Assembly (NCBI RefSeq): GCF_988242995.1
Contig: NZ_OZ547043.1
Direction: 5' to 3' (one strand)
DNA: 64,000 bases
In this document: piece after piece, positions 38,054 to 57,586 of the stretch
Layout of the letters: the number at the start of each line of letters is the position of its first letter
Position numbering within the stretch: the stretch's first letter is position 1
Made by a program: the position numbers and the translations under genes
The notes under the pieces: generated by a model
Database searches by the model: none
What the model was told of the DNA's origin: nothing
Seen by the model: only the letters and a program-made list of their open reading frames with translations

Positions 38054-40333
38054 TTAATTTGATGGCTCTAATTCAACAGGAATACTTTTATAGCCAGGAA
38101 TGCCACTTAATGGATCGTGGTTATCAAGTGTTAGCATGTGATTCGATTCTGGAAAATAGGTCACCAGTGAGCGGTCAGCCATAGGGTAAATGACCACTTT
38201 TAATCTATCCATGCGGCGTGAGCTTCGCTTACCGTCTGGCGTAAGCGCAATAAGATTAACTCTTTCGCCGTTTTTTACACGGCAAATTTTAGCTTGTTTA
38301 GCACTCATAAAGACCACATCTCGTTGACCGAATACCCCTCGATAGCGATCATCCATACCATAAATCGTCGTGTTGTACTGATCGTGACTGCGTACTGTCG
38401 CCATGACTAGCTTACTGTTAAACGCTGAAGAGGGATCTTCTAACAGCCCTTTACTGGTAATGAAATTAGCCTTACCTGACGGCGTCATCCAGCGCCTTTC
38501 AGCAGCTGCGTTTATCAGGTGAAAACCTCCAGTATGTCGGATGCGCTGGTTATAGTCGGCGAACTCTGGCAGCACAGCTTCAATGTCATTGCGAATGCGA
38601 TCATAATCTTCCACCAGATACTCCCAGGCTACCACGCTCTGGGGTAGTGCCGCCTGCGCGATACCCGCGACCACTGCACACTCTGATTTCAGCATTACAC
38701 CGGCGGGTTTTAACACGCCACGCGAGGCATGAATCATCGACATTGAATCCTCAACGGTTACCGCCTGCGCACCGCTTTTTTGCATGTCAATCTCGCTACG
38801 TCCCAGAACCGGCAGAATATAGCTATGCCGTGCGGTCAGCAGATGAGAGCGGTTAAGCTTAGTGGCTACGTGTACCGTCAGATCTAATTGTGTTAACGGT
38901 ACAGCGCTCGCTTCCCGATCTGGCATTGCCAGTGCAAAGTTGCCCCCCATGCAGATCAATGCTCGAGCCTGCCCCGTACATATTGCTTGCATGCTGGCAA
39001 TTGCAGCATGTCCAGGTGCATGAGGTGGGGTGAAACCATAGCGCTCACCCAGGCGAGCCAGAAACTCTGCAGACGGTTTCTCGGTGATACCGACGGTTCG
39101 GTCGCCCTGTACATTAGAGTGACCTCGTAGTGGGCAGATACCCGCACCAGGCTTGCCAATGTTACCTTTCATCAACAGCAGATTGACCAGTTGCTGTACA
39201 TTCTGGGTACCATGTTCGTGCTGAGTGATCCCCATTCCGTAACAGATAATGGTGCGTTCGGCAGCGGCATATGCATCAGCCAGTTCGGCGATTTGAGTCT
39301 GACTTAGTCCAGAAATACGTTCGATATCTTTCCACTCGGAATTGAGCACGTCACGGCGTAGCTCGTCAAAGCCGACGGTATGCGTTTGAATAAATTCGTC
39401 ATCCAGCAATGAGGGCCGACCTGCGGCGCTTGCAGCATCATCGCGCTCAATTAACAGGCGCATCATCCCCTTGAGCAATGCCATATCGCCACCAATGCGC
39501 ACGTTATAGTAGGCACTGGCCAACTGAGTCTCAGAGTTCGTCAGCATTTCAAACGGGTTTTGCGGTGCGGTAAATCGCTCCAGGCCACGTTCCTGTAGAG
39601 GGTTGATAGCGATCATTTTCGCTCCCCGTTTCACTAAAGCGCGCAACGAAGTCAGCATGCGAGGGTGGTTTGTACCAGGGTTATGCCCAATGCAAATGAC
39701 TAAATCGCATTTCTCAAAGTCTTCCAGCAACACGGTCCCTTTACCCACACCGATACTCGCTGCCAATCCCACACTGGTCGGTTCATGGCACATGTTGGAG
39801 CAGTCGGGAAAGTTATTGCTCCCGTATTCACGGGCAAAAAGCTGATAAAGAAAGGCAGCTTCATTGGAAGTGCGCCCCGAAGTATAGAATTCAACCTGAT
39901 TGGGATCACTATAGCTTTGAAGGCGAGCGCCAATTTCGTCGAAAGCTTGTTGCCAGCTTAATGGCTTGTAACAGTCGCTGACGTCATCATATTTCAAAGG
40001 CTGAGTGAGACGTCCCGCAGCCTCAAGCTCGTGATCTCCCCAGGTAAGTAATGATTGAACCGTATTCTCAGCAAAGAAAGAGGCATTTACCTGCTTATCC
40101 GTGACTTCCCAGGCGATTGCTTTTGCGCCGTTTTCACAAATGTCGAATGACGCACTGTGCTTAGGATCTGGCCATGCACATCCCGGACAGTCAAAGCCCT
40201 CTGGCTTATTCATGTCAAACATGGCAATAACATCCTGGCGTATATCCATCTGCTTACGTACTGCATTCGCTACGGATTTAACAGCACCCCAACCACCGGC
40301 AGCTCCCTGGTAGGATTCAATTTTTTTCTTCAT
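38054..40333 (-). CDS. ydeP: Molybdopterin-dependent oxidoreductase (formate dehydrogenase-like, acid resistance)
   Basis: 759 aa; N-terminal Cys cluster (CPGCAWPDP), molybdopterin oxidoreductase fold. Confidence 0.88.
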
Positions 40334-40581
40334 CTGCTTATCCTGTGTGGAAATGAATTATTAGGATTTGTAATAGCGATGATGCAAAGTATATACAAAG
40401 GGTTTATCGTCAACATGAATATATAAGAGTAGGGGACTACTCTCTTACTATTTTTACTCTATTATCGTTAAATAATAGAGTAGTATAAATACGATAAGTT
40501 AAGCATCATCTCTCATAGGGTTTAAATTAACATAATTCTCAATATAAAAAATAAGACTCTGGCTTCAATTGTGCGCGGATT

Positions 40582-40599
40582 TTCTTACAAGTGTAGGAT
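40582..40599 (-). promoter_or_regulatory. EvgA-box-like inverted repeat upstream of ydeP
   Basis: TTCTTACAAGTGTAGGAT matches the EvgA box pattern; about 250 nt upstream of the ydeP ATG. Confidence 0.55.
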
Positions 40600-40671
40600 A
40601 ATAGCCTTCACAAAATAATTATCCGCGCAATTTTCATGAATGGAGCGCATAGACTAATGTCAAAATCACAA

Positions 40672-41586
40672 TTATTCATAGATAAAAGTGACACCAATGA
40701 CTGACTGGACGGCTCCGGCTGCAACCTTGTTTCCTGTTTGTCCATAGGTTGCGCTTAAACCCAGAGGTACTTTGCTTTTATTTACTGTCCCCAGGGAGAC
40801 ATTTTCTCCTGTTGCCAGTGTTTTTCCATTACGCATCAGAGAGACACCCACGCCCGATGCTTTTGTTGCATCTGGTGCTGTGTTAGCAAACACTTGTCGG
40901 GCACTGTCAGTGGTGGCACCCGAAAGATAAAATGAGAGCTTTTGTTCGCTAGAGCAATATACACCAAGGGGTATTTCTGCGCTTCCAGGAAAGTCCGGGA
41001 GATTCACGGTGACATTACGACTATCAACGGTGCAACCGCCTGTTGGCATAACAACACTGTTATTTGAAATAATATTCCACGTAAAATTACGCGGATTTCC
41101 GCTTCCTAACGTGGCAATTTTATACATATGAATACGGGCAATAACTTCCCCTGCTTTTATGACAACTCCACCAGCCGCTCCGACTGGGGTAATATAGAGT
41201 TTTAACGGTAATGGCATCGGTGTCTTATCACCAATATCCAATACGTTGGTATTTGTCGTCAACGGGAAAGGGTAGGTCACATTATTCCAGTACAGTGATC
41301 CTTTATATGACTGTAGGGAGCCTGCGAAAGCTGATCCTTGTACCAGGTTTATATGATCAGTGTCGTACCAGCCGCCGTAATCATTCCAGCAACTTATATG
41401 CTGAGACAAGTCTACAACCAGATTCTGGCCCGGTTGTATTACAGGATCGAGATTAACATAAACAGAGGTTGTACCTGCTCCAATACTTGACCCGCCATCG
41501 ACATTACAACTGAAGGCAAAAACTTTGCCTGCCATTAATAGAAGATAAATACCGAACAGGACCTTTATACTGAATGTTTTACCCAT
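40672..41586 (-). CDS. ydeQ: Fimbrial tip adhesin, FimH-like two-domain
   Basis: 304 aa with signal peptide; last gene of the chaperone-usher operon; C-terminal pilin domain motif. Confidence 0.8.
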
Positions 41587-41645
41587 GATATATCCTAAGG
41601 TTAAAAAATTGATTTAAAAAGGAGGAAAATAAAATCAAATTGATG

Positions 41646-42149
41646 TTATTGCCAGGTATAGATCACATTGATTAGCGCCTCGATCGTACCCTGGCTTGCG
41701 TTTCCATTCACCGTGATAGCTCTTGCCTTAAGTGGAAACTGTGCATTACGAGTGATCTCATCAACAATAACCGTTTTGCTATCGCCATTTTTTAACGTCG
41801 CATCCTGGTCATCCCTTAGCTCTATCTGAATATTTTCGGCAGTACCTTCATTTTTGTAATAACCCGTATTGTCAGTTGAACCTGTCACGATTGCCGTCAC
41901 TGCACTTGTTTCAACCGGACAATCGGTTAATGACAAAGTAATATTGTGCCAGCCTGATGCAGAACCAGGTTGTTGCAGATTGCGCGTATAAAGATCCCCG
42001 AGATTAACGTTAGCTTCTTTGGTTTGAATAGTGCAGGGTTTAGCGACTACCCGACCATTAACAGTGATAGTGACATCGGCGGCCTGGAGAGTTACTGTGA
42101 ATAACGCGCAAAACGTAGCTAACAGGAACCTCTTGTGAAGTCTTTTCAT
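41646..42149 (-). CDS. ydeR: Fimbrial minor subunit (FimG-like)
   Basis: 167 aa, signal peptide, pilin fold with C-terminal aromatic residues. Confidence 0.8.
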   Translation of the reverse strand: MKRLHKRFLLATFCALFTVTLQAADVTITVNGRVVAKPCTIQTKEANVNLGDLYTRNLQQPGSASGWHNITLSLTDCPVETSAVTAIVTGSTDNTGYYKNEGTAENIQIELRDDQDATLKNGDSKTVIVDEITRNAQFPLKARAITVNGNASQGTIEALINVIYTWQ

Positions 42150-42161
42150 ATCTGACTCTGA

Positions 42162-42692
42162 TTATTGAAATTCAAGGGTAAAGGTTGCCGAAGCCCTCAC
42201 CAGTCCCGGATTGACGGACTTCTGAGTTGACTTCAGACGAGCGGAGTAAGGCAAAATATTGTTCTGTTCTGGTATCAGTGGGATCCACTGCATCCCGGCA
42301 TGAAGGTCATTCAATTTCACCGGACGCATATTTCCGTCCAGTATTTCTATACCCAAACCGGAGGCCGTATTGCTTCCTTCATCCAGTTTCAACAGAGTAT
42401 TATTTTCTGCATCCTCAATACCGTTAAATGCAACCCGAACCCCCGTTGTCTCTTTACTGCATTCACTTAACGTAATCTGAAAAGGGACGGCTGGACTTGT
42501 GCTACCGGTCGTTGGAAATTGTCTGGCACTGTTTTTTTGGAGATCTACGGTAAAATTAAGCGAATCCGATGAGACTGTGCAGCCATAATCGAGGACGCGC
42601 CCGCTAATTTTAATAACGCTATCTGCGGATAAAGCAGAATAGGTGGTTAACCCCAGACATAAACCGAGGAAAATAATGTTATTGTATTTCAT
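42162..42692 (-). CDS. ydeS: Fimbrial minor subunit (FimF-like)
   Basis: 176 aa, signal peptide, pilin-like. Confidence 0.8.
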   Translation of the reverse strand: MKYNNIIFLGLCLGLTTYSALSADSVIKISGRVLDYGCTVSSDSLNFTVDLQKNSARQFPTTGSTSPAVPFQITLSECSKETTGVRVAFNGIEDAENNTLLKLDEGSNTASGLGIEILDGNMRPVKLNDLHAGMQWIPLIPEQNNILPYSARLKSTQKSVNPGLVRASATFTLEFQ

Positions 42693-42705
42693 AATCTATT
42701 GTTCC

Positions 42706-45357
42706 TTAGCGACAGATTGCTGTCTGCTGGTTCAGTAAGGTACCAGGAGAAACTTCAGGAAGCTTGTACTCGACAATACAGTTTGAGTTTTTATCTTTGC
42801 CCCATGAAACCTGTAATTTCCCTGACTGTGGAAGTCCAGTCAGATAAACCTGACCGTTTTCCGCGACAATGCTGCCATTTTTATTCTCACCATGTATGAC
42901 AATTGCACCGAATGGAACGCTCTTATTACCGTACTTCAACGTCATTAATACTTTCCCGCCGATTTGTGCATTAAATGTTGCTCTGGCAATAGCACCGTGA
43001 GTTGGGATGACAGTGACAACGGTTTCATCCAGTTCAACATTATCTGCAAGGGAATTCGCGTTAAGAGCGACACGATTTTCTCTATATTCTGTCGCAAATG
43101 GTAATATGGCATAGCCACGCCAGTCGGTATGAATTCCGGTCTGGTTCTCTATTTTGACATTATCAGCGCCAGGAGCCTTAACCAGAACCATTGTGTCGCC
43201 CAGCGGCTGACCAAAGGTGATGCCATCAGCATGAGCAATAATCCCACCACTCATTCCGTAATAAATCTGGCTGCTGTCACCACTCCGACTGTAACCGACA
43301 TTAGTATTACCGTAAGCTCCACGATAATTAAGAGAACTGTAACCACTGGTGGCAGACGATGTATTACCCCCGTGGGTGTTACCGACCTGAACGCTATAAT
43401 TCAGGTTATTATCCGGCAGCAGAGTGCCATAAACCCCCGATAGATTGGTCATACCGCCTTTCAAATCGTTTGACATACTGTAACTGGCGTTTGAATTACG
43501 AAATGCCGACTGACTGTCTGTACGCATCCAATGACTGAAGGGAACATTAAGCGTAAAAGCAAGTAAATGATCCCGATCGTTTTGCCATATATTATTGGAA
43601 TAGCTGTAATTCAGCGAAGTCGTAATATCACCAAACGGCACATTTAATCCAAATGATATTTGCTGGTCGCTGCGTGACGTGTTCCAGTAACTTTGGCGAC
43701 TGGCACTGAAAAATGTCGTACCGTAATTTCCAAGCTGCTGAGAGATGCTTATTTGTTCCTGACCACGCTTACTGTAGAACAGATTAAAATAATCAATAAA
43801 TTGTGTCTGCTCATTGCTGTCTCCGGTAGGAGGCTTGACGGTGTAACCACTCATTCGACTGTAGGCACTGTCGGATAAGTTATAAAAACCTTGCGTAGAA
43901 TAGCGATATCCTGCGACCTGGATATTGGTTCCCGTCTGGTAGAAGGATTTGCTGTAGACGGATTTAATCGATTGCCCGCTGTGACGGGTGCCATCTGCAA
44001 GTGTCGTATTGGCCTGCGTGATATCGAAAGAAAAGGCACCAAAAAGTCCTAAATCTTTACCAATACCAAGGTTGAAGGCTTGATAATCTTCTGCAATTTG
44101 CATTCCGCCATAAGGTGTCCAGTTTCCTTCCAGTCCATGCATCAAGCTACCTTGTATGAACTTGGGGGAGCTTTGCAGGTTATTTCCACTACGATATTCC
44201 CCCATGGCAAGCGCATAACGCGTATATCCAGCACGTTGGAGAACCGGAACAGACGAATAAGGAACATATAATGTCTGAATACTGCCGTCTGCCTCTTTTA
44301 TGGTTACTTGCAGATCACCACCATTGGCCGCAGAGTTGATATCATCAATAGTAAAAGGGCCGGGTGGGACAGTAGTCTGATAAACATCGTATCCATTCTG
44401 TTTTACACTCACTTGTGCGGTGCCGCGGGCAATACCATGAATCACCGGAGCGAAACCATGTTGGCTATCGGGCAACATCGCTTCTGTTGAATTTATTTTG
44501 AGGCCACGAAAGTTCACACTATCAAAAATATCGCCATCGGTATAACTATCACCTACCGTTAAGCGTGAGCGTAAGGGAATAATGTCACGTTCAGCCGACG
44601 TATTGATGTGCTGCCATTTATTGCTGTCAGATGAATTGCTACTCCCACTGTTATAACTCCACGTTGAGTTATCGCGCAGTCGCCAACTACCAATGTTGAT
44701 GCCACTCTGTAAATTCAAATATGCATAGTTGGATTTTCCTGCATTATGGTTACTACGATTATTAATAGAATTACCATTAAAACTATAGTTTAGAAGCCCA
44801 GCATTTATTCCTTCTTCCCACAGATCAGGAGAAACATAGCCGCGAGCCATTCTGCCAACATAAATTTGCGGAACGGAGAGTGACAAATGTTGCTGACCAA
44901 CATCAAACTCAGTTGATGCGTCGGCCAAACGATCCTGAAGTGGTGTGCATGCGCTGTTGTCCGGCACATGTTTTTCTGCCAAATGTTCTTTATTGTCTAA
45001 TAACGCTGATTTTTTTATGCCAAGACTGACAAGAAGATCTGTACTCAGGCATGGGATGAGATCTGCGTTATTATCATCTGCAATAAAAGTAATATCCCGA
45101 CTAGTCATAAATTCGTCGTTCAAATAAATGTCGACCCGATATGTACCAGGTGGTGCCTCGCGTCCCTTAGTAAAGGCGGATAAATCGACAGATTCAGCAA
45201 GATCATTGCTTAAAAACCGTGGATTAAAATAATACTCTGCGTCAACGGGAAATACCGCAGTTGCTAAGCCAAGGGCAATGGTAAGCCGTGCAAAGCGAGG
45301 CAGTAGTAACACCTGATGCATACGATATGCCTTAAATGCGGCACGAAAGGCTGTCAT
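42706..45357 (-). CDS. ydeT: Fimbrial outer-membrane usher, full length (FimD/PapC family)
   Basis: 883-aa uninterrupted ORF; as I recall ydeT is a truncated pseudogene in K-12, so here the usher appears intact. Confidence 0.8.
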   Translation of the reverse strand: MTAFRAAFKAYRMHQVLLLPRFARLTIALGLATAVFPVDAEYYFNPRFLSNDLAESVDLSAFTKGREAPPGTYRVDIYLNDEFMTSRDITFIADDNNADLIPCLSTDLLVSLGIKKSALLDNKEHLAEKHVPDNSACTPLQDRLADASTEFDVGQQHLSLSVPQIYVGRMARGYVSPDLWEEGINAGLLNYSFNGNSINNRSNHNAGKSNYAYLNLQSGINIGSWRLRDNSTWSYNSGSSNSSDSNKWQHINTSAERDIIPLRSRLTVGDSYTDGDIFDSVNFRGLKINSTEAMLPDSQHGFAPVIHGIARGTAQVSVKQNGYDVYQTTVPPGPFTIDDINSAANGGDLQVTIKEADGSIQTLYVPYSSVPVLQRAGYTRYALAMGEYRSGNNLQSSPKFIQGSLMHGLEGNWTPYGGMQIAEDYQAFNLGIGKDLGLFGAFSFDITQANTTLADGTRHSGQSIKSVYSKSFYQTGTNIQVAGYRYSTQGFYNLSDSAYSRMSGYTVKPPTGDSNEQTQFIDYFNLFYSKRGQEQISISQQLGNYGTTFFSASRQSYWNTSRSDQQISFGLNVPFGDITTSLNYSYSNNIWQNDRDHLLAFTLNVPFSHWMRTDSQSAFRNSNASYSMSNDLKGGMTNLSGVYGTLLPDNNLNYSVQVGNTHGGNTSSATSGYSSLNYRGAYGNTNVGYSRSGDSSQIYYGMSGGIIAHADGITFGQPLGDTMVLVKAPGADNVKIENQTGIHTDWRGYAILPFATEYRENRVALNANSLADNVELDETVVTVIPTHGAIARATFNAQIGGKVLMTLKYGNKSVPFGAIVIHGENKNGSIVAENGQVYLTGLPQSGKLQVSWGKDKNSNCIVEYKLPEVSPGTLLNQQTAICR

Positions 45358-45398
45358 TTTTAATTCCGATTGAGTTTATTATTAATTAGGTCACTGGC

Positions 45399-46118
45399 TT
45401 ATTGCATGGTTGCCTTAATACGCGGAGTTAATGCACCGTAATCATTGATCGTCTGAAAACTGATATCCCCGGTTGCAGCATGCGGGATATCCACCGATAC
45501 TTCACCTTTTGGCGGCACCATGGTGTTTGGGAGATTGCTATTTCCTGCTTTCATATTTGTTACGGTAATGAAGTAGGGCGTTGGATTAATAAGAGTGAGT
45601 TTGCTGCCGCTGCGACGAAACCGAAGCATTGCAGGCGCTTCTTCAGGTGCCATTGCCAGGTTCGTGGGGCGATAAAACATTTTTATGCGGCTAATAATTG
45701 CCAGCTGTAATGTATTCTCATTCTTCTGATCTTTTTCCATAGCAGGAATAGCTTTAACATTAACCCAGAACAGGCTTTCACGGTCGCCTGGTAACTGATG
45801 ATTAGTGGCGTTGATTATCCGCAGCGTATTCTCTTTTTTACCTTGCATGGAAAAAAGCGGTGGCGTAATGACAAACTGGGTGTCTTTTTGGTCACCCTCA
45901 TTTTCTATCCATGACTGAATGAGATAGACACTGGCAGGATCATTATTCGTGACAGGCAATAAAACCTGTTTCTGGTTTGCCGGATAAATTACCCGCGTCG
46001 CACCCAGTGCGACAGCTGCGTTGGCAACGGTGCTATGGCAAGCAAAGAGCAATAAAAGTAACACTGTCGCCATAAAGGAAATAGAGTAGGGGGTACGCCT
46101 AGTTTGCATCTGATGCAT
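45399..46118 (-). CDS. Periplasmic fimbrial chaperone (PapD/FimC family)
   Basis: 239 aa; signal peptide; chaperone-like N-terminal region and C-terminal domain. Confidence 0.8.
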   Translation of the reverse strand: MHQMQTRRTPYSISFMATVLLLLLFACHSTVANAAVALGATRVIYPANQKQVLLPVTNNDPASVYLIQSWIENEGDQKDTQFVITPPLFSMQGKKENTLRIINATNHQLPGDRESLFWVNVKAIPAMEKDQKNENTLQLAIISRIKMFYRPTNLAMAPEEAPAMLRFRRSGSKLTLINPTPYFITVTNMKAGNSNLPNTMVPPKGEVSVDIPHAATGDISFQTINDYGALTPRIKATMQ

Positions 46119-46471
46119 TCTCCATGTGTTAAGAGGATAAGCGGGGAAACCGTTACATCAGACAATCGGTAAATGTTGCTAATACATTGGCGACTCGCCG
46201 GGTTTCCAGACTTAATGCGTTTGTAATAAATGTTGGTTCTCTTTTAATAGGAAAACATTGCTACAAAGTAAATATTTTAAATAACAGTAAGTTTAACTAC
46301 TGTTGTTTATTGATCGTTTAGATATTATGTGATTTTTTCATGCCGCTCCAAAACACAAACTATTCCTCATTAATAATGAGATGAACATTGGTGAATTGCT
46401 CGGGTGTGCGTAGCCATGCCACACACACCCTGTTTCAATTTCAGATGACGTATAGCCACCTTAAGATTGAA

Positions 46472-47035
46472 TTATAGATATTGAACTTTGAAGGTCGCAT
46501 CAGCGTTTGCAGTACCAGCTACTGACTGCCCGAGAGCAATATAACGAGCCTGGAACGGCAGTATATTCGTGCCATCAATCAAGTCAGTTTTAGCGCTAAA
46601 AGTGGCACCATCAAGTATTAATACCTCACCCGTACGGTCCAAAATTTGAATACCGACATTTTGGGCAGAGCCTGCCGCTGAACTCTGCAGCGCTAACGTA
46701 TCGTCATTACTGGTGACAGTAGTACCCAGGAATGCAACAGCTGCATTACTGGAAACATTGGTATCACAATCATTCAGCTTGATATTGAAGCCAACGGCGG
46801 AGCTGAGGTCACCCGCTTTAGCCAGACGAGAAGAACGGACCTGACCCAGCTCAACCGTTTGGTTCATTGATTCTGAATCAATCGCACAAGCGGCATTTAC
46901 CACTTCACCTTTAAAATGAATAACACCGCCATTAACAGTGGTCGTTACTGATTCATCACCCTCGGCTGCGCTTACCGCAGCAGACGACATCGCCAACACA
47001 GAAACGACAATCATACCGACATGTTTGAGTTTCAT
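46472..47035 (-). CDS. Major fimbrial subunit (type 1 / F9-like pilin)
   Basis: Track ORF 46472-47083 with internal start [23 protein letters not shown]; Cys pair and C-terminal ...TFKVQYL typical of FimA-like pilins. Confidence 0.8.
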
Positions 47036-47468
47036 AATTCTCCAGAATTTATATTTAAGTAGCTGAATAAAGAAAGTTAACAATTAAGTCATTCTGTTAT
47101 TGCTTATAAAACAAGAATCATTCTTGATGGGATATTGCCCTGAGAATATAGTTTCCAGGGTTATTACATTTCACGAAGAACGATAATATCTTTAAATTAC
47201 AAGGACACCTAATCACAACAAGTTTATTGCAGCACTTGTTGTAGAGGGTATTTGCAAAGACATTTTATGTCGCTAAATAACATTACGATTTCATTATGCA
47301 TGTTATTTATAAACAGCGACTAAACAGAATATTATTGCGAACAAGGGAAGTGTCAGGAAAGGTCAAGAGCGGCCAATGGTTTATATGGCTATAAAACATT
47401 AGCTATGGTTAATGTTTGACTGGTGTAACTAACACGGAATTGCTCTAAACAGATAAGTGCAGGGTTTA

Positions 47469-47723
47469 TTAAAGCTGACCGACAGACTTTCTTAACCCGG
47501 TAATATCTCTCTTAGGTGACTCTCCAAACATCCGCGAATATTCCCGACTGAAATGGGATAAGCTTTCGTAACCGACAGCATAGGCTGCAGTGGTGACATC
47601 GTAATGTTCATTCAGCATCAGTCGCCTGGCTTCATTGAGGCGTAGCCATTTCTGATACCGGAGTGGACTCATTCCCGCAAGCTGTCTGAAGTGTTGATGG
47701 AAAGTGGGGGTGTTCATTTGCAC
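47469..47723 (-). pseudogene. yneL: Remnant of an AraC-family regulator (C-terminal HTH only)
   Basis: 84-aa ORF is only the AraC C-terminal HTH domain (LRYQKWLRLNEARRLM...GYESLSHFSREYSRMFGESP); no N-terminal domain ORF upstream. Confidence 0.65.
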
Positions 47724-48003
47724 GCGGTTTGCCAGCCTGACTCTTCAACGCAGGGAAGATGCGGCAAACGGCAAACCTGCATACCAGCCAGCCTATATCC
47801 GGTATGCACAGGCCAATCATGAAAGAGGAGAGGCTTTATGTTCTGGAACCCTGAAGTAATAACGACGACTGGAAAATCGCTTCGCATCACTCAAATTCCA
47901 TTTAACTATTCTGGGTTTGAGGGATATACATAATTGACTTCAGCACCAGAAACAGCATAACAAACTGTTTTAAATGGATATTAATCAAATGGCGATTCAA
48001 ACT

Positions 48004-48038
48004 CACAGTTATGAACTCAGTTTTGGTTCATAACTGTG
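48004..48038. repeat. Perfect 13-bp inverted repeat with 9-bp spacer
   Basis: cacagttatgaac-tcagttttg-gttcataactgtg; a related palindromic 10-mer gttcatgaac lies about 40 nt further on. Confidence 0.8.
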
Positions 48039-48137
48039 TTAAACGCTGTCCATAAATCACTCGATGTTACGCTTATTGGTTCATGAACTGTTCGTTCTAA
48101 TGTTGTGATGTGCGTCAGGTTTTAGTGTTCGGTAATG

Positions 48138-48941
48138 TTACCTTTTACTCGATGATCGATTGTTTAGCACCTCTCCCACAACCGGAGCAGCGGTAAATGC
48201 GTTTGGCCAGCCAGCATAGAAGGCGGCCTGGGTAACGATCTCACCAGCTTCCTCAACAGAAAGTCCATTATCCATTGCTCTGTTAAGGTGATAGCCAATC
48301 TGCGCGCTCTGTCCGGATGCGATTAAGGCGCTGACCGTAATCAGGCTTCTGTCGCGGGGTTTCAGCGCGGGTCTTTGCCAGAGATCCAGGAAGAGTGGAT
48401 CAGCAGTGAATTTAACCAGGCCTGGAGATATTGGGCCAACATTTTTTTCCACTGTTTCTGAACGCTGCTTTTCTGCTTCCTGATTGAGAGGAAGCAGGTC
48501 CGGAGAAGCGTCAGGAAGTGCATCTGCCGTGACGCCACGAGTTTCAAATACTGCTTTGGTCACGCTGACGGCTGACATTGCATTTGGCCAACCTGAGTAG
48601 AACGCCAGATGGGTAATGATTTCTGATAATTCCGCTGGCGTCACGCCGCTATCGAGAGCGACGTCAATATAGTGCTTAAGCTGGGCAGGCTGGTTGCGGG
48701 CAATCAGCATGGCGACGGTCACCACACTACGATCCCTCGGTGAGAGGGCGTCGCGTGTCCACAGATCTTCAGTAATAGCTTCGCGACCAAAGCGCGCGAG
48801 AGCCGGTGAGACGGAACGAATATCAGCTTCCGAAATCGCTGACGGTTCTATTTTCATCATAGCTTTACCTCTTGTTTCCTCAGCATTGGCAAAATCAGAA
48901 ATAACAAGCGACATAGCCGCTGCTGCAAGTACGCTTTTCAT
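48138..48941 (-). CDS. Tandem carboxymuconolactone decarboxylase-like (AhpD-like) protein with predicted signal peptide
   Basis: 267 aa; two repeated modules each with a ...ITHLAFYSGWPNA... type segment (CMD/AhpD fold); N-terminus MKSVLAAAAMSLVISDFANA looks like a Sec signal. Confidence 0.7.
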   Translation of the reverse strand: MKSVLAAAAMSLVISDFANAEETRGKAMMKIEPSAISEADIRSVSPALARFGREAITEDLWTRDALSPRDRSVVTVAMLIARNQPAQLKHYIDVALDSGVTPAELSEIITHLAFYSGWPNAMSAVSVTKAVFETRGVTADALPDASPDLLPLNQEAEKQRSETVEKNVGPISPGLVKFTADPLFLDLWQRPALKPRDRSLITVSALIASGQSAQIGYHLNRAMDNGLSVEEAGEIVTQAAFYAGWPNAFTAAPVVGEVLNNRSSSKR

Positions 48942-48956
48942 GTTAATCCTTACTGG

Positions 48957-49682
48957 TCAACGTTGCTGCTCCTGTTTGATTCCGCCTTTGTTACGAAGAA
49001 ATACCGGTTTTACCGGGATTGCGTCCTTCCTGGCGCTCATATGCGCCGTTTGCCTGAGGTAATCCAGGAAGTGCGGCGTTTGTCGGTGCAGTTGATAATC
49101 CTCCTCACTGGCGTAAATCTCATAGAAATACCAGCGTTTTGGAGTCTCTGAATCTGTACCGGCATACATGGCTAACACGCCTTTCTCTACTTTGAGCGAC
49201 TCGACCATTTCAGGAAGGACGATGTTTCTAAATTCGCTCTGAAATTCAGGCTTTACTTCGACGATCACCAGATTATTGATAGTTCGTTCATTCGGTATGA
49301 TGTGTTTGTCGCCCAGAAACTGTGGCTCCAGGGTAATTTTCTTCTTCCTGTCAATAATGTCAGGTGCACGAGCAGCGAATGCTTTGTATGGGGCGGCATT
49401 GAGATGTTTGCGATAAGCACGCTCATTTTCATAGAGTTCGAACATGAATGCCTTATGTGGATTGTCGCTGTGGTGCAGGGCGTACATCGCCAGCGTACCT
49501 ACTTCATGATCAACCGAAGCGGAAATCGTCTGTCTGGCTACGTCTGCAAAGTCGTTGTCCCGATCGGGTCTGATGCCGAGCTCGAAGATATTCATCTCCG
49601 GCTTATTCGGCGCGTCCGGTTTTGTTGCAAAGACAGGGCTGCTTATTAGCATGCAAATTAAAAGCATAAAAGTCTTTTTCAC
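48957..49682 (-). CDS. Tandem ABM-type (antibiotic biosynthesis monooxygenase-like) protein with predicted signal peptide
   Basis: 241 aa; two halves each with LAMYA...FYEIY / FELYENE... features of the ferredoxin-like ABM fold; N-terminus MKKTFMLLICMLISSPVFA. Confidence 0.6.
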   Translation of the reverse strand: MKKTFMLLICMLISSPVFATKPDAPNKPEMNIFELGIRPDRDNDFADVARQTISASVDHEVGTLAMYALHHSDNPHKAFMFELYENERAYRKHLNAAPYKAFAARAPDIIDRKKKITLEPQFLGDKHIIPNERTINNLVIVEVKPEFQSEFRNIVLPEMVESLKVEKGVLAMYAGTDSETPKRWYFYEIYASEEDYQLHRQTPHFLDYLRQTAHMSARKDAIPVKPVFLRNKGGIKQEQQR

Positions 49683-49797
49683 GATGATCTTTTTACTGAC
49701 ATTACTGTTTAAGACGTTCGATCAACTGGTGCTGGTAGGAACGTAACCGACCGCTACTGGCGCTCTCAAAGACTAGAGGAGGAAAAGTGAATAAGGG

Positions 49798-50817
49798 CTA
49801 TCGCGTCCATACCTGCTTAACATCTTTCGTTTGCGGCGTATTTTGCGCCATGATCCCCGTCAGAACATGCGGCTGGTAGGTTTCTTCCAGAAACTGAATT
49901 TCCTCCGGACTTAGTTGAAGATTTACTGCGTTTACCGCGCCATCGACATGAGCTTTTTTTGTAGCCCCTACGACAGGTGATGTGACTTTTGTCAGCAGCC
50001 AAGCGAGAGATATTTCCGTCATTGACACCAGATGGCGTTCGGCCAGTTCGGCTACACGCTCAATAATGCTGCGATCCTGTTCAGCCGTGCTGTCATATTT
50101 TCCACGCGCATAGTCATCCTCTGTGGCTCGCCGCGTATAGCCTTCTTTACGAGAGAGGCGGCCGCTGGCCAGCGCGCTATAGGGGGTCATTGCGATATTA
50201 TCCTCAGTGCACAGGCCGAAGAGCTCCCGTTCATCTTCGCGCATAATTAGATTGTAGTGGCTCTGTACGGAAACAAAGGGCGTCAGCCCTTCGCGTTCAG
50301 CAAGGGCGTTCGCCTTCGCCAGCTGCCAGGCATAGCAGTTTGAAATACCAACAGCTCGTACTTTGCCAGCAGTAACAGCGGTATGTAACGCTTCAAGCAC
50401 GTCGATAATGGGCGTGTTGTAATCCCAGATGTGGTAGATGTAGAGGTCGATATAGTCCATCCCCAGATTCTTCAGGCTCTGGTCAAGGGATTGAGCGATT
50501 GCCTCTTTTCCGCTGATCCCTCCGGCAATTTGTGCGGGGGTTCGCGGCAGAAACTTGGTGGCCAGGACGATATCATCGCGTTTCGCCATCTCCCGTAATG
50601 CCCGGCCAACGTATCGCTCACTGGAGCCATTCTGGTAGGCTATAGCGGTATCGTAAAAGTTGATGCCCTTTTCAAGGCCATAGCGAATGATGTCGCGGCT
50701 TGCTGTTTCGTCCAGCGTCCAGCTATGCTGACCCGTCGACGGATCGCCAAACCCCATGCATCCCATGCAGATGCGGGAAACAAGTAAGTCACTTTTACCG
50801 AGCCGGGTATACTGCAT
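49798..50817 (-). CDS. Aldo/keto reductase
   Basis: 339 aa; AKR motifs (GINFYDTAIAY, catalytic Tyr/Lys context). Confidence 0.8.
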   Translation of the reverse strand: MQYTRLGKSDLLVSRICMGCMGFGDPSTGQHSWTLDETASRDIIRYGLEKGINFYDTAIAYQNGSSERYVGRALREMAKRDDIVLATKFLPRTPAQIAGGISGKEAIAQSLDQSLKNLGMDYIDLYIYHIWDYNTPIIDVLEALHTAVTAGKVRAVGISNCYAWQLAKANALAEREGLTPFVSVQSHYNLIMREDERELFGLCTEDNIAMTPYSALASGRLSRKEGYTRRATEDDYARGKYDSTAEQDRSIIERVAELAERHLVSMTEISLAWLLTKVTSPVVGATKKAHVDGAVNAVNLQLSPEEIQFLEETYQPHVLTGIMAQNTPQTKDVKQVWTR

Positions 50818-50819
50818 TG

Positions 50820-51392
50820 TTATTCTCCCTCTGGATTATTCACGACGGAATTGAGCAGTTCGACAAGCCTTGAAGCGTGTTCCCGGGCAAGCGTTTTTTG
50901 CTGCGCGATTTTGTCGGCATCCCGGTCGGCATAGCTGATACCGCAGGTATAAACCGGCGCCAGCAGCTCAAGATTGCACAGCCTTGCCGTGGTTTCGAAC
51001 GGAATAAGATACTCTTCAATGGTATTGCCAAAGAAACTGTCGACGGTATAGAGCTCCTCTGGCGCTCCCGTTGTAAAGGAGAGGATCAGCTTTTTACCGC
51101 CCAGTTTCGCCGTTGAGCCATGCGCGAAGCCGTGAACAAAGACCTCGTCCAGCCATTTTTTCATTAATCCTGGCAGCCCATACCAGGAAAAAGGGAACTG
51201 CCAGACAATCACATCGGCCCTGAGCAGGCTTTTCTGCTCCGCCGCGATGTTGAATTTGCCATCCGGATAGAGCCTGTCCAGACGACGAATCTCAACATCG
51301 GGAAGGGCGGTCTCCACTTCATCAAGAATAGTGGCATTGGCGACGGAATGGGTAAGCTCAGGATGACCTGAAATAACAAGGATATTTTTCAT
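50820..51392 (-). CDS. Flavodoxin-like NAD(P)H:quinone oxidoreductase family protein
   Basis: 190 aa; MKNILVISGHPE... N-terminus and WQFPFSWYGLPGLMKKWLDEV typical of NAD(P)H dehydrogenase (quinone) family; 3-nt gap to the downstream AKR gene. Confidence 0.75.
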   Translation of the reverse strand: MKNILVISGHPELTHSVANATILDEVETALPDVEIRRLDRLYPDGKFNIAAEQKSLLRADVIVWQFPFSWYGLPGLMKKWLDEVFVHGFAHGSTAKLGGKKLILSFTTGAPEELYTVDSFFGNTIEEYLIPFETTARLCNLELLAPVYTCGISYADRDADKIAQQKTLAREHASRLVELLNSVVNNPEGE

Positions 51393-51542
51393 TTCAATCA
51401 GTTAAACATCTTTGGTGAATATTAAATCCAGTATAGAGTGACAACATTATTTTTTTAGAGCAGTAAAGGCTCATTCACTTTTAGGCAAAAACTAATAATT
51501 GTCGGCTGATCACAATGTGCTCAGTCATCATGAAACGGTGAA

Positions 51543-52220
51543 CTAAACCGTGATGCCCAGTAAACGTTCTGCATTGCGAAACGCGATGGCCTCTTTTTCA
51601 GCCTTGTTGACGGGCAGACTGTCTATAAAGGTTTTTACACCGTCCAGGGGTCTGATAGGGATAACCGACGGAGAACAGGATCCTTTCAGCACCCATTAAC
51701 GCGTAGATAAACTGGAAGTGCGGCAGTGTTAGCATATGACGGGGTAACGTAAACGTGTTCCTGGAAGGTTCTCGTTAGCGTGCGTGACAGACCCGTTGCA
51801 GCCAGTGCTAGGCTGTCATCAAGACGCTGGAGCCAGAAGGGTAACATCTCCCCCCAGTGGCCACTGATTACCTGCAGGTTGGGATATTTATCAAATGCGC
51901 CCGATAACATCAGCCGCAACAAATGGATCCCCGCTTCGTGATGCCAGCCCCAGGCAAACATAGAAAGCCTGGCGTTGACCTCTGCGCTGAAGCCCGTGAA
52001 GTAGGCCTGCTGTACGCTTTTAAGCGGTAACCCGGGATGAAGATAGAGTGGCACATTCAGTTTATTAAAGCGGGAAAGCAGGGAGTCGGTCAGGATTATG
52101 ACCATCAGCGACGGTTTTCCCCCTGTCGCCAAGGAAAGGTGCCTGCTCAAGCGCAACAGGCATACACGCGCGCCCTAACTCGCTGTCGAGATAATTTTCT
52201 TCGAGGCAAATGATTTTCAT
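51543..52220 (-). pseudogene. Frameshifted amidohydrolase-2 (TIM-barrel metal-dependent hydrolase) gene
   Basis: Coding potential is split over three frames: MKIICLEENYLDSELG... (from ATG at 52220), a 156-aa middle ORF (51686-52156) containing ISGHWGEMLPFW, and a C-terminal piece ...AEKEAIAFRNAERLLGITV* ending at 51543. Confidence 0.55.
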
Positions 52221-52322
52221 ATTCTCACCATTCATACAAAGCAGTAAAAGTGATACAGATTAGAATCACCCGGAACAGCCCGTTCGTGTGTGTCATTCAT
52301 GACAGTCTGTTCCGGACGGGCT

Positions 52323-53270
52323 TTACACCATCGGTTTTTCCCAGGCGCCTCGTGTATCCACTCTGGTCTCTGCGGCGAGTTGTTCCAGCAGGATGATTTC
52401 CTCATCGCGTAACTGGATGTCTGAAGCGCAGGCGGCGTCCAGAACGTGATGGACTTTAGTCGCACCAACGAGGGGAAGGGTACCTTTCACAATAGCCCAT
52501 GCGATGGATATCTGTGCCACGCTGGCATTCCTTTCGGCTCCCATTTTTTTCATGGCGGCGGTTAGTCTTTCTATCTGCGGCAGTACGGCGTTATAACTTT
52601 CGGCCCGGCCACTCCCGGCAGGCATGGGATGATTTGAATCATAACGACCACTGAGCGCGCCTTGCTCCAGGACCATGTAAGCAAAGAACGTGATGTTATT
52701 TTGTCGGCAATAATCAAGGATCCCGGCCTCTTCAGAAGCGCGATAGAGCAGGCTGTAGTGATTTTGTACTGCACTGAGGGAATAACCGGAAGCGTTAAGG
52801 ATTTCATTGGCGCGTCTGATTTGTGCCAGATTGTGGTTGGAAACACCTACGCGTTTTACCTTACCGCTTTGTAAAAGTGGGATCAGTCCTGGCGTCCATT
52901 TTTCGACGTCGAGGGGATTATGGATCCAGTAGATATCAATCGCGTCCACGCCCAGGCGCCCAAGGCTGGCCTCAAGCATATCGCTGACAGGCTGCGCAGA
53001 CTGCTTGTCCGCAATCTGCGGCGTGAATTTGGTGGATAAAATTATGTTCTCGCGGGGAAACTGACGGACTAATGCTCCCAGCGCAGTCTCGGAACTCCCC
53101 ATACCATATACTGCTGCGGTATCCCAGAGATTGAGGCCCTTACTCATGGCCGCAGTGAACACTTCTGCCATCTGAGTATCAGAAAGATGATTACCAAAGA
53201 CGGTGTCGCCGCCGGCAAAGCCTGTGCCCCAGGACCATGTACCTAGTGCGACTGGAGGTAGTGTTTTCAT
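52323..53270 (-). CDS. Aldo/keto reductase
   Basis: 315 aa; AKR motifs (LWDTAAVYG, IDIYWIHNP). Confidence 0.8.
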   Translation of the reverse strand: MKTLPPVALGTWSWGTGFAGGDTVFGNHLSDTQMAEVFTAAMSKGLNLWDTAAVYGMGSSETALGALVRQFPRENIILSTKFTPQIADKQSAQPVSDMLEASLGRLGVDAIDIYWIHNPLDVEKWTPGLIPLLQSGKVKRVGVSNHNLAQIRRANEILNASGYSLSAVQNHYSLLYRASEEAGILDYCRQNNITFFAYMVLEQGALSGRYDSNHPMPAGSGRAESYNAVLPQIERLTAAMKKMGAERNASVAQISIAWAIVKGTLPLVGATKVHHVLDAACASDIQLRDEEIILLEQLAAETRVDTRGAWEKPMV

Positions 53271-53343
53271 ATTCAGCTCCTGAAAAAAGGCCGGATCGTG
53301 GCTGACTTAAACCGGCCAAGTAAGGTGAGTAACGATGAATTAA

Positions 53344-54033
53344 TTAAGCTGTCCGGCGGAGTGCATTTAACAGCGCCACACCAACCCCATGTGCTGAAGC
53401 GGGATTCTGCCCCGTGATAAGGCGATCGTCGGTAACCACGTTTTCAGACCAGTTTGGAGCTTCATGATAAAGCGCACCATGCTCGCGAAGTGCGGTTTCA
53501 AGCAGGAAGGGAACCACATCTGTTGTGTGAACTTCTTCCTCTTCCTTGTTGGTAAAGGCCGCCACATTTTTCCCTTTTATCAGGTATTCGCCGCTACTGA
53601 GTTTTGCGTCAACCAATGCCGCAGGCCCGTGGCAGACGGCTGAGACAATCCCATCACTTTCATACACTTCGCGGATAATACGCTGGGCATCCTGATTATC
53701 ACGGAAATCCCACATGGTCCCATGACCACCTGCAAAGAAAACTGCGCTGTAATCGGCACCTTTCAGCTCGGATAACGCAGGTGTTGTTGCCAGGCGCTGC
53801 TGAAAATCGGTTTCGTTCCAGTACCAGGCGTTAACAGGGTCGCTGAGGTCAAATCCATCCACCGGTGGCTGCCCCCCGCGAATACTGGCTATTGTTGTTT
53901 TTATTCCGGCATCTTCCAGTACTTTCAGCGGATGAGTCAGCTCGGCCAGGAAAAAACCGGTTGGTACACCGGATGCGCCTTTAATCGGATGGCTGGAAAC
54001 GACACATAGCACTGGTTTATATGCAGGTTTCAT
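53344..54033 (-). CDS. DJ-1/PfpI (class I glutamine amidotransferase-like) family protein
   Basis: Roughly 229 aa; nucleophile-elbow-like AVCHGP; start uncertain (track ORF extends to 54045). Confidence 0.75.
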   Translation of the reverse strand: MKPAYKPVLCVVSSHPIKGASGVPTGFFLAELTHPLKVLEDAGIKTTIASIRGGQPPVDGFDLSDPVNAWYWNETDFQQRLATTPALSELKGADYSAVFFAGGHGTMWDFRDNQDAQRIIREVYESDGIVSAVCHGPAALVDAKLSSGEYLIKGKNVAAFTNKEEEEVHTTDVVPFLLETALREHGALYHEAPNWSENVVTDDRLITGQNPASAHGVGVALLNALRRTA

Positions 54034-54041
54034 ATCGGTCC

Positions 54042-54353
54042 TCACTCTTTATTTTTAAATTCATCGGCGAAGAGATTTTCCCAGTTAATAAAGGAGCCAA
54101 GCGGTATACACTCGAAGCTTAGTAAGCCTGCTTTTGCCAACGGGAATTCGGCCATAACGTTCATCGCTTCATCGACAGAGTCACATTCAAGAAAAATAGC
54201 GACGCCAGGTCTGTCCTGACGGAAGTAGATGTCGCGGATGAAGCCTGATTTATACAATCCCCAGGCGTGCAGCGCTTCAGCGTTGAGGTGCGGAGCATAT
54301 TTCTCCAGCGATGCTCCAGGGGCAGGGATATCCAGACATAAAATTCGCATCAT
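54042..54353 (-). CDS. Small alpha+beta-barrel protein, possibly muconolactone-isomerase-like
   Basis: 103-aa ORF first in the operon; weak pattern similarity to muconolactone isomerase and other dimeric alpha/beta-barrel proteins; assignment tentative. Confidence 0.45.
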   Translation of the reverse strand: MMRILCLDIPAPGASLEKYAPHLNAEALHAWGLYKSGFIRDIYFRQDRPGVAIFLECDSVDEAMNVMAEFPLAKAGLLSFECIPLGSFINWENLFADEFKNKE

Positions 54354-54489
54354 AGTCTCCTGAACTCAGGTCGTTGTAGAAAGAGACTAAAGTATAAGAG
54401 GCGTATTTCAGGAAGATTAGAGGGTCATTGACTTAAGCATTTTTAGACTGTACTTAATAATCAGGCGAGAATTGCTTTAGGAAAACATT

Positions 54490-55389
54490 ATGAATAACGC
54501 TCTTTATAACCAGATTCGCATCTTCCAGAGCATTGCGCGGGAGGGCAATATTTCGGCAGCCGCAAGGAAACTGGAAATTACGCCTCCCTCCGTCAGCAAT
54601 GCACTAAAGCTGCTGGAAGAGTATATCGGCCATCCGCTTTTTGTGCGTACGACCCGCCGTATAGAGCTGACGGAAACCGGTCAATTATTGCTGGAACAGA
54701 CCGCTGCGGCGGTGGAGTCGCTGGAAAACTCACTTGAAAGCATTCGCGACCAGCATCAGGAGCCCTCTGGGATGGTGCGAATTACGCTCTCGCGTTTTGC
54801 CTACCTGTTAATTCTTAAGCCTGCGATGGCAGAATTCTGTCAGCAATATCCGGGTATACAGTTAGAAATTTCGGTCTACGACGGTACCGTGAATATCATC
54901 AAAGAGCGTTTTGATCTGGGGATCCGTTTTGGCGATATTCTTGAGGGAGGGGTGGTGGCCCGACCGTTAATGAAACCGTTTCGTGAAGGATTATATGCAT
55001 CCTCAGCGTATCTCTCCCGACATGGAACGCCTGAAGTGCCGGCAGATCTCTGTCATCACCAGCTGATTGGTTACCGTTTTATCACCAACAACCGCATCCT
55101 TCCGCTGCTCCTGAACGATCGCGGTGAGCAGTTGACCGTTGAGATGCCGGGGCAGTTAATCAGCAACGATATTGACGTTATGGCAGACGGGATCCGTAAC
55201 GGGCTGGGAATTGGGCGCTTGTTTGAGCCTGTCTGGCAGTTACAGCCGGACAGGGAGCGCTTTATTCCGGTGATGGAGAGCTACTGGAAAACCTACCCGC
55301 CAGTGTATCTCTATTACCCCAAAAACGCGGGTAAAACGAAAAGAGTGAAGGCCCTGATTGATTTTCTGATATCCACTACGGGGCGATAA
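54490..55389 (+). CDS. LysR-family transcriptional regulator
   Basis: 299 aa; N-terminal HTH (ISAAARKLEITPPSVSNALKLLEE) and LysR substrate-binding domain; divergent from the redox operon. Confidence 0.85.
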   Translation: MNNALYNQIRIFQSIAREGNISAAARKLEITPPSVSNALKLLEEYIGHPLFVRTTRRIELTETGQLLLEQTAAAVESLENSLESIRDQHQEPSGMVRITLSRFAYLLILKPAMAEFCQQYPGIQLEISVYDGTVNIIKERFDLGIRFGDILEGGVVARPLMKPFREGLYASSAYLSRHGTPEVPADLCHHQLIGYRFITNNRILPLLLNDRGEQLTVEMPGQLISNDIDVMADGIRNGLGIGRLFEPVWQLQPDRERFIPVMESYWKTYPPVYLYYPKNAGKTKRVKALIDFLISTTGR

Positions 55390-55787
55390 AGACGATAACG
55401 CCTCGTTCAGTATGGAGATGCATCGAATGGCATTGTGAGTTTTTTTTCACAGATGGGCGTAATCGTCAGTGGATTTTACATACGAGGATAGCGCCCACAT
55501 ACTGACATCATTAATTAACGTTGGGTGAGGTTTACCGGGGGGGAGGGGAACGCGAACCAGGAGATGGAGGTGGCCAATCTGGTACGAACCGCCGCGTAGC
55601 TTGCACGGCAAGAGCTGCTGACTGATTCATCAGTTAAGCTACTGAAAGAGCGGAACACATGAACTTAAGAACAAACCACCACATTTAACATAATATACAT
55701 TATGCGCACCAGCATAAACCAAGGAAGAATCCAGTCGTTGGCGGCCATAATTGTCCTGCTCATTAACAACGACCAAAACCCCATATC

Positions 55788-57376: not shown

Positions 57377-57397
57377 GTCATACGTCCACAGCAAATT

Positions 57398-57511
57398 TAT
57401 CCGCTCAAGGGGATATTATCAGTTTTATCCTTTAGTGAGGATAAAGTCAATCTGGAAACACATCTTATCCGCTCTACGGGATAAACGCTGCGATATCCGC
57501 GATCGCGGATA
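57398..57511 (-). promoter_or_regulatory. hipBA promoter/operator region with four HipB operators (TATCC-N8-GGATA)
   Basis: Four copies of TATCC-N8-GGATA at 57398-57415, 57426-57443, 57466-57483 and 57494-57511, all upstream of the hipB ATG. Confidence 0.85.
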
Positions 57512-57586
57512 AAAAGGAGGATTTAAAAGTCGTTTGAAGTCGGCAATATTAAGCCGCATGCATCTTCGACATGCGGCTTATACGGT

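Follow-up and report, generated by a model that had tools for sequence, protein, structure and literature searches.

The chaperone–usher pathway is well established, and among the pili that depend on it are the F9 pili of Escherichia coli, for which the names Fml and Yde are also in use. Earlier publications describe the operon, how it has decayed in phylogroup A and K-12, its control by H-NS and low temperature, and its glycan targets. In the UPEC strain CFT073, the operon c1931–c1936 makes surface fimbriae that are repressed by H-NS, are expressed at 20 °C, and bind Gal(β1-3)GlcNAc (PMC3966885). The TF antigen is a ligand of the tip adhesin FmlH, which plays a part in chronic urinary tract infection and has a wide, shallow pocket with specificity for β-galactosides rather than mannose (PMC5866590). 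The system is relevant to colonization of the urinary tract, the bovine gut, and plants, and is a target of galactoside anti-adhesives. F9-homologous clusters have also been described in EHEC O157:H7.

We analyzed a stretch of 64,000 nucleotides from contig NZ_OZ547043.1 (RefSeq assembly GCF_988242995.1), referred to here as the window. Six open reading frames without a single internal stop codon lie on the minus strand at positions 40672–47083. Counted from the annotated start of the first gene, the operon spans 40672–47035 (minus strand) and encodes a major subunit, a chaperone, an usher, two minor subunits, and a two-domain adhesin, separated by intergenic gaps of 362, 41, 13, 12, and 59 nt. 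The features of the locus are as follows.

47293..47322, minus strand: f9 promoter; −35 element TAGTCG (47322–47317), 18-nt spacer, −10 element CATAAT (47298–47293)
47036..47286, minus strand: 5′ leader of 251 nt; begins at the transcription start (G at 47286) and ends at the base preceding the ATG of the major subunit
46472..47035, minus strand: major subunit gene f9A/fmlA, 187 aa; labeled “fimA” by PGAP; open reading frame with annotated start
46402..46430, minus strand: G+C-rich hairpin of 13 bp without a T-run, ∼40 nt past the stop codon of the major subunit gene
45399..46109, minus strand: periplasmic chaperone gene, 236 aa when counted from the ATG annotated at 46109; the open reading frame reaches 46118
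42706..45357, minus strand: outer-membrane usher gene, 883 aa, full length
42162..42692, minus strand: minor subunit gene ydeS, FimF-like adaptor, 176 aa
41646..42149, minus strand: minor subunit gene ydeR, FimG-like, 167 aa
40672..41586, minus strand: tip adhesin gene ydeQ/fmlH, 304 aa; signal peptide 1–24, lectin domain 25–184, pilin domain ∼185–304

The initial annotation had given the operon as 40672–47083. The adhesin end of this span holds, whereas the upper end does not, because position 47083 is the TTG of a mechanically extended reading frame. The ATG at 47035, with a GGAG ribosome-binding site located 5 nt ahead of it, is the most likely start of the major subunit (187 aa), and the annotations of strains Ch1 and CFT073 use the same codon.

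All six proteins match a profile or a solved homologue from end to end. In a profile search, usher residues 11–883 aligned with positions 6–877 of a profile of 877. Residues 1–176 of YdeS covered positions 1–175 of 175 of the NCBIfam FimF model, residues 1–166 of YdeR covered 1–166 of 166 of the FimG model, and residues 1–186 of the major subunit covered 1–184 of 185 of the FimA-type major subunit model. The closest NCBIfam model for the chaperone was FimC (residues 18–237 against 9–228 of 230, with a score under the cut-off), and adhesin residues 9–304 aligned with residues 6–300 of the solved structure of full-length FimH. At the domain level, Pfam assigns PapC_N (43–195), Usher (213–795), and PapC_C (804–868) to the usher, PapD_N and PapD_C to the chaperone, and FimH_man-bind and Fimbrial to the adhesin. 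The translations show hydrophobic signal sequences at the N terminus. The cluster thus combines the components that characterize a chaperone–usher pilus: an usher with N-terminal, pore/plug, and C-terminal domains, a two-domain PapD-like chaperone, and pilin-fold subunits with signal peptides. A check for hidden frameshifts and premature stops found none, and the open frames, the full-length family and structure matches, and protein lengths equal to those of CFT073 without gaps support the earlier description of six uninterrupted genes.

When compared with the F9 operon of CFT073 (c1931–c1936), the locus shows no change in the set of six genes or in their order; the proteins are equal in length and align without gaps at 97.5–99.7% amino acid identity (major subunit 98.4%, chaperone 97.5%, usher 97.8%, YdeS 97.7%, YdeR 98.2%, adhesin 99.7%). 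This corresponds to 19 differences in the usher and one to six in each of the other proteins; the single substitution in the adhesin falls in the signal peptide. In strain Ch1, all six proteins are 100% identical to those encoded here, and PGAP marks none of the genes as a pseudogene.

The surroundings agree with the published F9 locus, in which ydeO-safA-ydeP lies downstream and hipBA upstream, with a variable segment in between. In the window, ydeP (38054–40333) directly follows the 3′ end of the operon, as in CFT073, and hipA-hipB is found upstream at ∼55.8–57.4 kb. The two loci differ in the upstream DNA beyond ∼47448, where CFT073 carries an SDR oxidoreductase gene and a LysR fragment, whereas the window contains an AraC-type pseudogene fragment and a ∼7-kb island of redox genes before hipBA. 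This LysR-linked redox island and the AraC-type fragment form a strain-specific upstream region.

The F9/Fml type proposed in the initial annotation is borne out by the adjacency to ydeP, the close identity to c1931–c1936, and a lectin domain that equals that of FmlH (PDB code 6AOW). From the sequence, the locus is very probably an intact E. coli F9/Fml/Yde chaperone–usher pilus operon at its usual site beside ydeP.

The lectin domain of the adhesin is identical in 160 of 160 residues to that of crystallized FmlH (PDB code 6AOW) and is also 100% identical to that in PDB code 5LNE (FmlH). All residues of the galactoside pocket are therefore present. The contact residues named for FmlH (PMC5866590) were checked one by one, and Phe-1, Asp-45, Tyr-46, Asp-53, Lys-132, Asn-140, and Arg-142 are all retained. 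The operon of UTI89 carries a 1.9-kb deletion, which seemed to conflict with the description of FmlH as characterized in that strain. The conflict is resolved by the origin of the material: the in vivo work on FmlH was done in CFT073, with UTI89 supplying only the recombinant lectin domain.

The −35 element, the spacer, and the −10 element upstream of the major subunit gene are identical to those of the promoter mapped by 5′-RACE in CFT073 (PMC3966885). The transcription start is likewise identical, with the G at 47286 located 251 nt upstream of the ATG, exactly the spacing in CFT073. A consensus scan for promoters and terminators gave no excess of sites over shuffled sequence (15 against 19.8 expected and 8 against 6.7 expected, respectively), and it missed the mapped f9 promoter because the −35 element is weak. 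Nearly identical in sequence to its CFT073 counterpart, the leader has a predicted fold more stable than that of shuffled sequence (z = −3.9). The hairpin behind the major subunit gene (fold energy −26.6 kcal/mol, z = −3.9, none of 200 shuffles as stable) is identical in CFT073 and UTI89; from the analogy to other pilus operons, we infer that it may act as an mRNA stabilizer or a partial attenuator. A search for known RNA families at positions 40000–48200 gave a sole match, to OxyS (20.5 bits, E = 0.91; gathering score 75), on the opposite strand inside the adhesin gene, and this sub-threshold match was rejected.

Regulatory input from beyond 47448 could differ from that in CFT073, as the upstream DNA differs. 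Conceivably, the stable leader and the conserved hairpin provide control at the RNA level, e.g. as a thermosensing or stability element that adds to the effect of H-NS in the known low-temperature expression of F9, and/or the strain-specific upstream region alters F9 expression, but we consider this unlikely.

In the mechanism expected from the established pathway and from the published work on this operon, all six genes would be transcribed from a sigma-70 promoter located 251 nt ahead of the first of them. H-NS would repress this promoter, with expression mainly at low temperature, and the conserved hairpin after the major subunit gene probably keeps the mRNA of the major subunit in excess over the downstream genes. 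After export of the subunits by the Sec pathway, the PapD-like chaperone would fold and cap them in the periplasm, and donor-strand exchange at the usher would polymerize them. Assembly is predicted to begin with the FmlH/YdeQ adhesin, followed by the FimG-like and FimF-like adaptors and finally by the rod of major subunits. The tip lectin would bind terminal β-galactosides, namely Gal(β1-3)GalNAc (TF antigen), GalNAc, and Gal(β1-3)GlcNAc.

With its complete gene set, the strain is genetically fully equipped for F9/Fml pili, and the intact genes together with the conserved mapped promoter make it a reasonable inference that it probably produces functional F9-type pili. Because CFT073 represses F9 through H-NS and expresses it at ∼20 °C instead of 37 °C (PMC3966885), display in this strain would be conditional. 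The operon might, however, be genetically intact and still never make pili, due to permanent silencing or a disabling strain-specific substitution. In this direction point the failure to detect F9 in wild-type CFT073 at 37 °C, where an hns deletion or low temperature is needed, the cryptic state of several K-12 chaperone–usher operons under H-NS (PMC3966885), and the frequent decay of the locus across E. coli, with the K-12-type deletion in 1381 of 5426 genomes in addition to further deletions and IS insertions, which suggests weak selection in some lineages. Against such a cryptic state stand six open frames, 97.5–99.7% identity to an operon that is demonstrably functional, and the conservation of promoter and leader. 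In addition, the complete locus is kept in ∼66% of complete genomes, which argues for purifying selection. On this evidence, we regard a permanently cryptic operon as improbable.

The PGAP names fimA, fimF, and fimG would suggest that the locus is a type 1 (fim) operon or a mannose-binding equivalent. Indeed, three of the proteins score above the cut-offs of the NCBIfam “equivalog” models FimA, FimF, and FimG, the adhesin matches Pfam FimH_man-bind, and the gene order resembles fimA-C-D-F-G-H. However, the lectin domain is only 46% identical to that of FimH but 100% identical to that of FmlH, whose pocket binds galactosides, not mannose, and the usher and the chaperone score under the cut-offs for FimD and FimC. 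Moreover, neither fimI, a fimB/fimE recombinase gene, nor an invertible switch is present in or beside the cluster, which adjoins ydeP and does not lie at the fim site. Lectin identity, FimC/FimD scores, the absence of fimI and fimB/fimE, and position together refute the assignment to type 1 fimbriae, for which we see almost no chance. The automatic labels fimA, fimF, and fimG denote F9 paralogues here, not type 1 fimbriae.

Phase variation of F9 by inversion of a fimS-like element is equally far-fetched: a 15-nt inverted repeat (47279–47293 and 47594–47608, 14 of 15 positions complementary) brackets a 300-nt segment that holds the −35 and −10 elements, but a search of 5426 complete E. coli genomes did not find the junction expected after inversion in any of them. 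Furthermore, the right arm belongs to the AraC-type pseudogene fragment outside the CFT073 homology (which ends near 47448), no recombinase gene is adjacent, and a single repeat of this kind in 1.8 kb of A+T-rich sequence is close to what chance would give, so that the invertible switch was rejected as a chance repeat.

The intact F9 operon of the window contrasts with its counterpart in K-12. Alignment demonstrates that K-12 lacks the DNA corresponding to window positions 43933–47213 (3281 bp). Lost through this deletion are usher residues 1 to ∼475, the chaperone and major subunit genes, and the leader beyond its first ∼73 nt. What remains of the usher is ydeT′, comprising only ∼residues 476–883. 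Promoter and neighbors are kept, and the orthologous ydeQ, ydeR, and ydeS products share 97.0–98.8% amino acid identity with those encoded here. The annotation of the K-12 strain DH5α accordingly lists ydeT as a partial usher without its N terminus and contains neither a chaperone nor a major subunit gene. Both this annotation and the mapped deletion confirm what the initial annotation had stated for K-12, a truncated usher with the chaperone and the major subunit absent.

Among 5426 complete E. coli genomes, 3587 (∼66%) contain at least 80% of the locus, a count that reflects coverage of the locus and not calling of open reading frames. The junction of the K-12 deletion is found in 1381 of the 5426 genomes, and other deletions and IS insertions also occur at the locus. 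The intact operon is the majority state in E. coli (PMC3966885 and this survey), and there is nothing unusual in the contrast between an intact operon here and a degraded one in K-12; the degraded K-12 locus is the exception and not the reference state. The finding is correct but ordinary and already known, and it matters little beyond correct annotation.

The closest paralogous pilus of F9 is the type 1 fimbria (fimAICDFGH), with 50% identity between the mature adhesin and FimH. Both share the chaperone–usher mechanism, the two-domain fold of the adhesin, and the tip order of adhesin, FimG-like subunit, FimF-like subunit, and rod, whereas F9 is encoded at another chromosomal locus and lacks fimI and the fimB/fimE/fimS phase switch. 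With CFT073, in contrast, the locus shares even the promoter, the transcription start, and the hairpin behind the major subunit gene in identical form.

The F9 operon of the window consists of six minus-strand open reading frames arranged head to tail, with gaps of 362, 41, 13, 12, and 59 nt in the order of transcription. No internal stop codon is found in any of the six frames in the window sequence. The locus comprises the following features.

40672–41586, minus strand: adhesin, ORF of 304 aa
41646–42149, minus strand: minor subunit YdeR (FimG-like), ORF of 167 aa
42162–42692, minus strand: minor subunit YdeS (FimF-like), ORF of 176 aa
42706–45357, minus strand: usher, ORF of 883 aa
45399–46118, minus strand: chaperone ORF; annotated ATG at 46109, giving 236 aa
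46402–46430, minus strand: G+C-rich hairpin of 13 bp, ∼40 nt past the major-subunit stop codon
46472–47083, minus strand: major-subunit ORF; ATG at 47035, giving 187 aa
47322–47317 and 47298–47293, minus strand: f9 promoter, TAGTCG and CATAAT with an 18-nt spacer, matching the CFT073 map

The initial annotation had described six uninterrupted genes at 40672–47083. All six frames are indeed open, but the boundary at 47083 is a mechanical TTG, and the major subunit starts at ATG 47035, which is preceded by a GGAG 5 nt upstream. A check for hidden frameshifts did not refute the open frames: each protein can be aligned from one end to the other with its family model (the adhesin with FimH). Residues 11–883 of the usher match model positions 6–877 of 877, residues 18–237 of the chaperone positions 9–228 of 230, and residues 1–186 of the major subunit positions 1–184 of 185. 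The FimF-like subunit (residues 1–176) covers positions 1–175 of 175, the FimG-like subunit (residues 1–166) positions 1–166 of 166, and residues 9–304 of the adhesin align with positions 6–300 of full-length FimH. In Pfam, the usher carries PapC_N, Usher, and PapC_C, and the chaperone carries PapD_N and PapD_C; the adhesin combines a lectin domain of the FimH type with a pilin domain.

The initial annotation had described the K-12 counterpart as possessing a truncated usher and lacking the chaperone and the major subunit, which proved correct. In DH5a (K-12), the gene order is ydeP, ydeQ, ydeR (labeled fimG), ydeS (labeled fimF), ydeT, a helix-turn-helix pseudogene, and hipA–hipB, where ydeT is a 1227-nt partial usher annotated as “missing N-terminus.” In a BLAST comparison with this locus, window segments 40001–43932 and 47214–47678 align to adjoining K-12 positions; K-12 therefore lacks window 43933–47213 (3281 bp). 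This deletion takes out the chaperone and the major subunit together with residues 1 to ∼475 of the usher and the leader except for about its first 73 nt; the alignment shows that the f9 promoter is kept.

In CFT073, f9 transcription starts at a G 251 nt upstream of the major-subunit ATG, the promoter consists of a −10 element CATAAT and a −35 element TAGTCG with an 18-nt spacer, and H-NS binds the promoter region (Wurpel et al., PMC3966885). The G at window position 47286 lies exactly 251 nt from ATG 47035, and the leader aligns near-identically throughout with that of CFT073. This 251-nt leader (within 47020–47286, minus strand) folds markedly more stably than shuffled controls (z = −3.9). 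The hairpin at 46402–46430 (−26.6 kcal/mol, z = −3.9 versus shuffled controls) has the same sequence in CFT073 and UTI89 and is not followed by a T-run. By analogy to other pilus operons, it probably stabilizes or partly attenuates the transcript, which would leave the major subunit in excess.

Just upstream of the f9 promoter lies the helix-turn-helix part of an AraC-family regulator, a C-terminal fragment (47469–47723, minus strand). All related records examined annotate it as a partial pseudogene, and in strain Ch1 it carries an IS100 insertion at about window 47574–47582. Between the F9 operon and hipBA, a ∼7.3-kb block of redox-type genes (48138–55389) is absent from K-12 and CFT073. It encodes a carboxymuconolactone decarboxylase family protein, a putative quinol monooxygenase, two aldo/keto reductases, an NAD(P)H oxidoreductase, an amidohydrolase-family protein, a glutamine-amidotransferase-like protein, and a divergent LysR regulator. 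Only 434 of 5426 genomes cover at least 80% of the layout of 47000–64000. Further along, a single 1806-aa open frame (57587–63007, minus strand) matches the RefSeq “ECSE_1600 family autotransporter”; the counterpart that K-12 has at this position is listed in its annotation as a pseudogene with a frameshift, a second case besides F9 of a locus intact here and decayed in K-12. At 880–3927 (plus strand), tandem ORFs of 195 aa (880–1467) and 803 aa (1516–3927) are followed by ORFs of 294 and 231 aa, which may represent fdnG split by an in-frame selenocysteine UGA, and then fdnH and fdnI.

The window matches the studied F9 system closely. Region 40400–47500 is matched in 5361 of 5426 complete E. 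coli genomes, identifying the window as Escherichia coli. The best match among these is Ch1 (99.9%), where ydeO–safA–ydeP flank six F9 genes annotated as intact coding sequences, with all six products 100% identical to those of the window. Published F9 work was carried out on the c1931–c1936 operon of CFT073 (NC_004431.1, 1772498–1778860). Gene by gene, the six lengths in CFT073 are exactly those found in the window, and the proteins align without gaps at 98.4% (major subunit), 97.5% (chaperone), 97.8% (usher), 97.7% (YdeS), 98.2% (YdeR), and 99.7% (adhesin) identity. The lectin domain of the adhesin (mature residues 1–160) is identical at 160/160 positions to the crystallized lectin domain of FmlH (PDB codes 6AOW, 5LNE, and others). 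Accordingly, the residues that contact galactosides in FmlH structures (Phe-1, Tyr-46, Asp-53, Lys-132, Asn-140, and Arg-142; PMC5866590) are all present, as checked one by one. Thus, the locus has all the parts that F9 requires, each of them intact and essentially identical to its counterpart in the functional reference, which confirms the observation and supports its interpretation as an intact F9/Fml operon. We infer that F9 is expressed and assembled in the window strain; a cryptic operon is unlikely, as conservation speaks against it.

Type 1 fimbriae can be rejected. The adhesin is FmlH and not FimH, with which it shares 50% identity in the mature protein and 46% in the lectin domain; the usher and chaperone score under the FimD and FimC cut-offs; and the locus lacks fimI, fimB, fimE, and fimS. 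The NCBIfam “equivalog” models FimA, FimF, and FimG nevertheless pass their curated cut-offs on the F9 paralogues (41646–42692 and 46472–47035), which accounts for the PGAP labels fimA, fimF, and fimG at F9. RefSeq names these genes fimA/fimF/fimG or ydeS/ydeR, inconsistently from genome to genome. An invertible f9 promoter, bounded by a 15-nt inverted repeat (47279–47293 and 47594–47608, 14/15 complementary) around a 300-nt segment that contains it, was also rejected, because the inverted junction expected from promoter inversion occurs in 0 of 5426 genomes and one repeat arm lies outside the conserved locus.

Based on established chaperone–usher knowledge and the cited F9 papers, transcription would proceed from the H-NS-repressed f9 promoter, with repression relieved at about 20 °C in CFT073. 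The subunits would be exported by Sec and then captured by the chaperone, and the usher would build the pilus by ordered donor-strand exchange, placing FmlH at the tip, followed by the FimG-like and FimF-like adaptors and the major-subunit rod. FmlH binds Gal(β1-3)GalNAc, GalNAc, and Gal(β1-3)GlcNAc (PMC5866590, PMC3966885, PMC12442223), and the F9 fimbriae of O157:H7 are reported to bind plant xyloglucan as well (PMC7766294).

Of the 5426 complete genomes, 3587 (66%) contain 80% or more of the 7.1-kb query in one piece, and 1381 (25%) give a full-length match to a 100-nt probe spanning the junction of the K-12 deletion. A separate 1896-bp deletion (window 41943–43838; 7543/7544 of the UTI89 locus) occurs in the UTI89 and NU14 lineage (nine complete genomes, including NC_007946.1). 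It removes the usher C terminus, ydeS, and the start of ydeR, fusing the truncated usher to the truncated ydeR, so that UTI89 has no intact F9 operon. The crystallized FmlH lectin domain came from UTI89, yet the F9 operon of this strain is not intact; published in vivo F9/FmlH work used CFT073. In the literature, 60% of 42 genomes, 61% of the ECOR collection, and 80% of urosepsis isolates carry the operon in intact form; in phylogroup A, to which K-12 belongs, it is disrupted without exception, and UTI89 is entered as disrupted (Wurpel Table 2; PMC3966885). F9 is counted among the “core-associated” E. coli chaperone–usher fimbriae, which occupy one fixed locus in either intact or disrupted form (PMC3559732). 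Our genome counts agree with these reports, and none of the examined aspects of the F9 operon of the window is new, its intact form being the majority state in E. coli.
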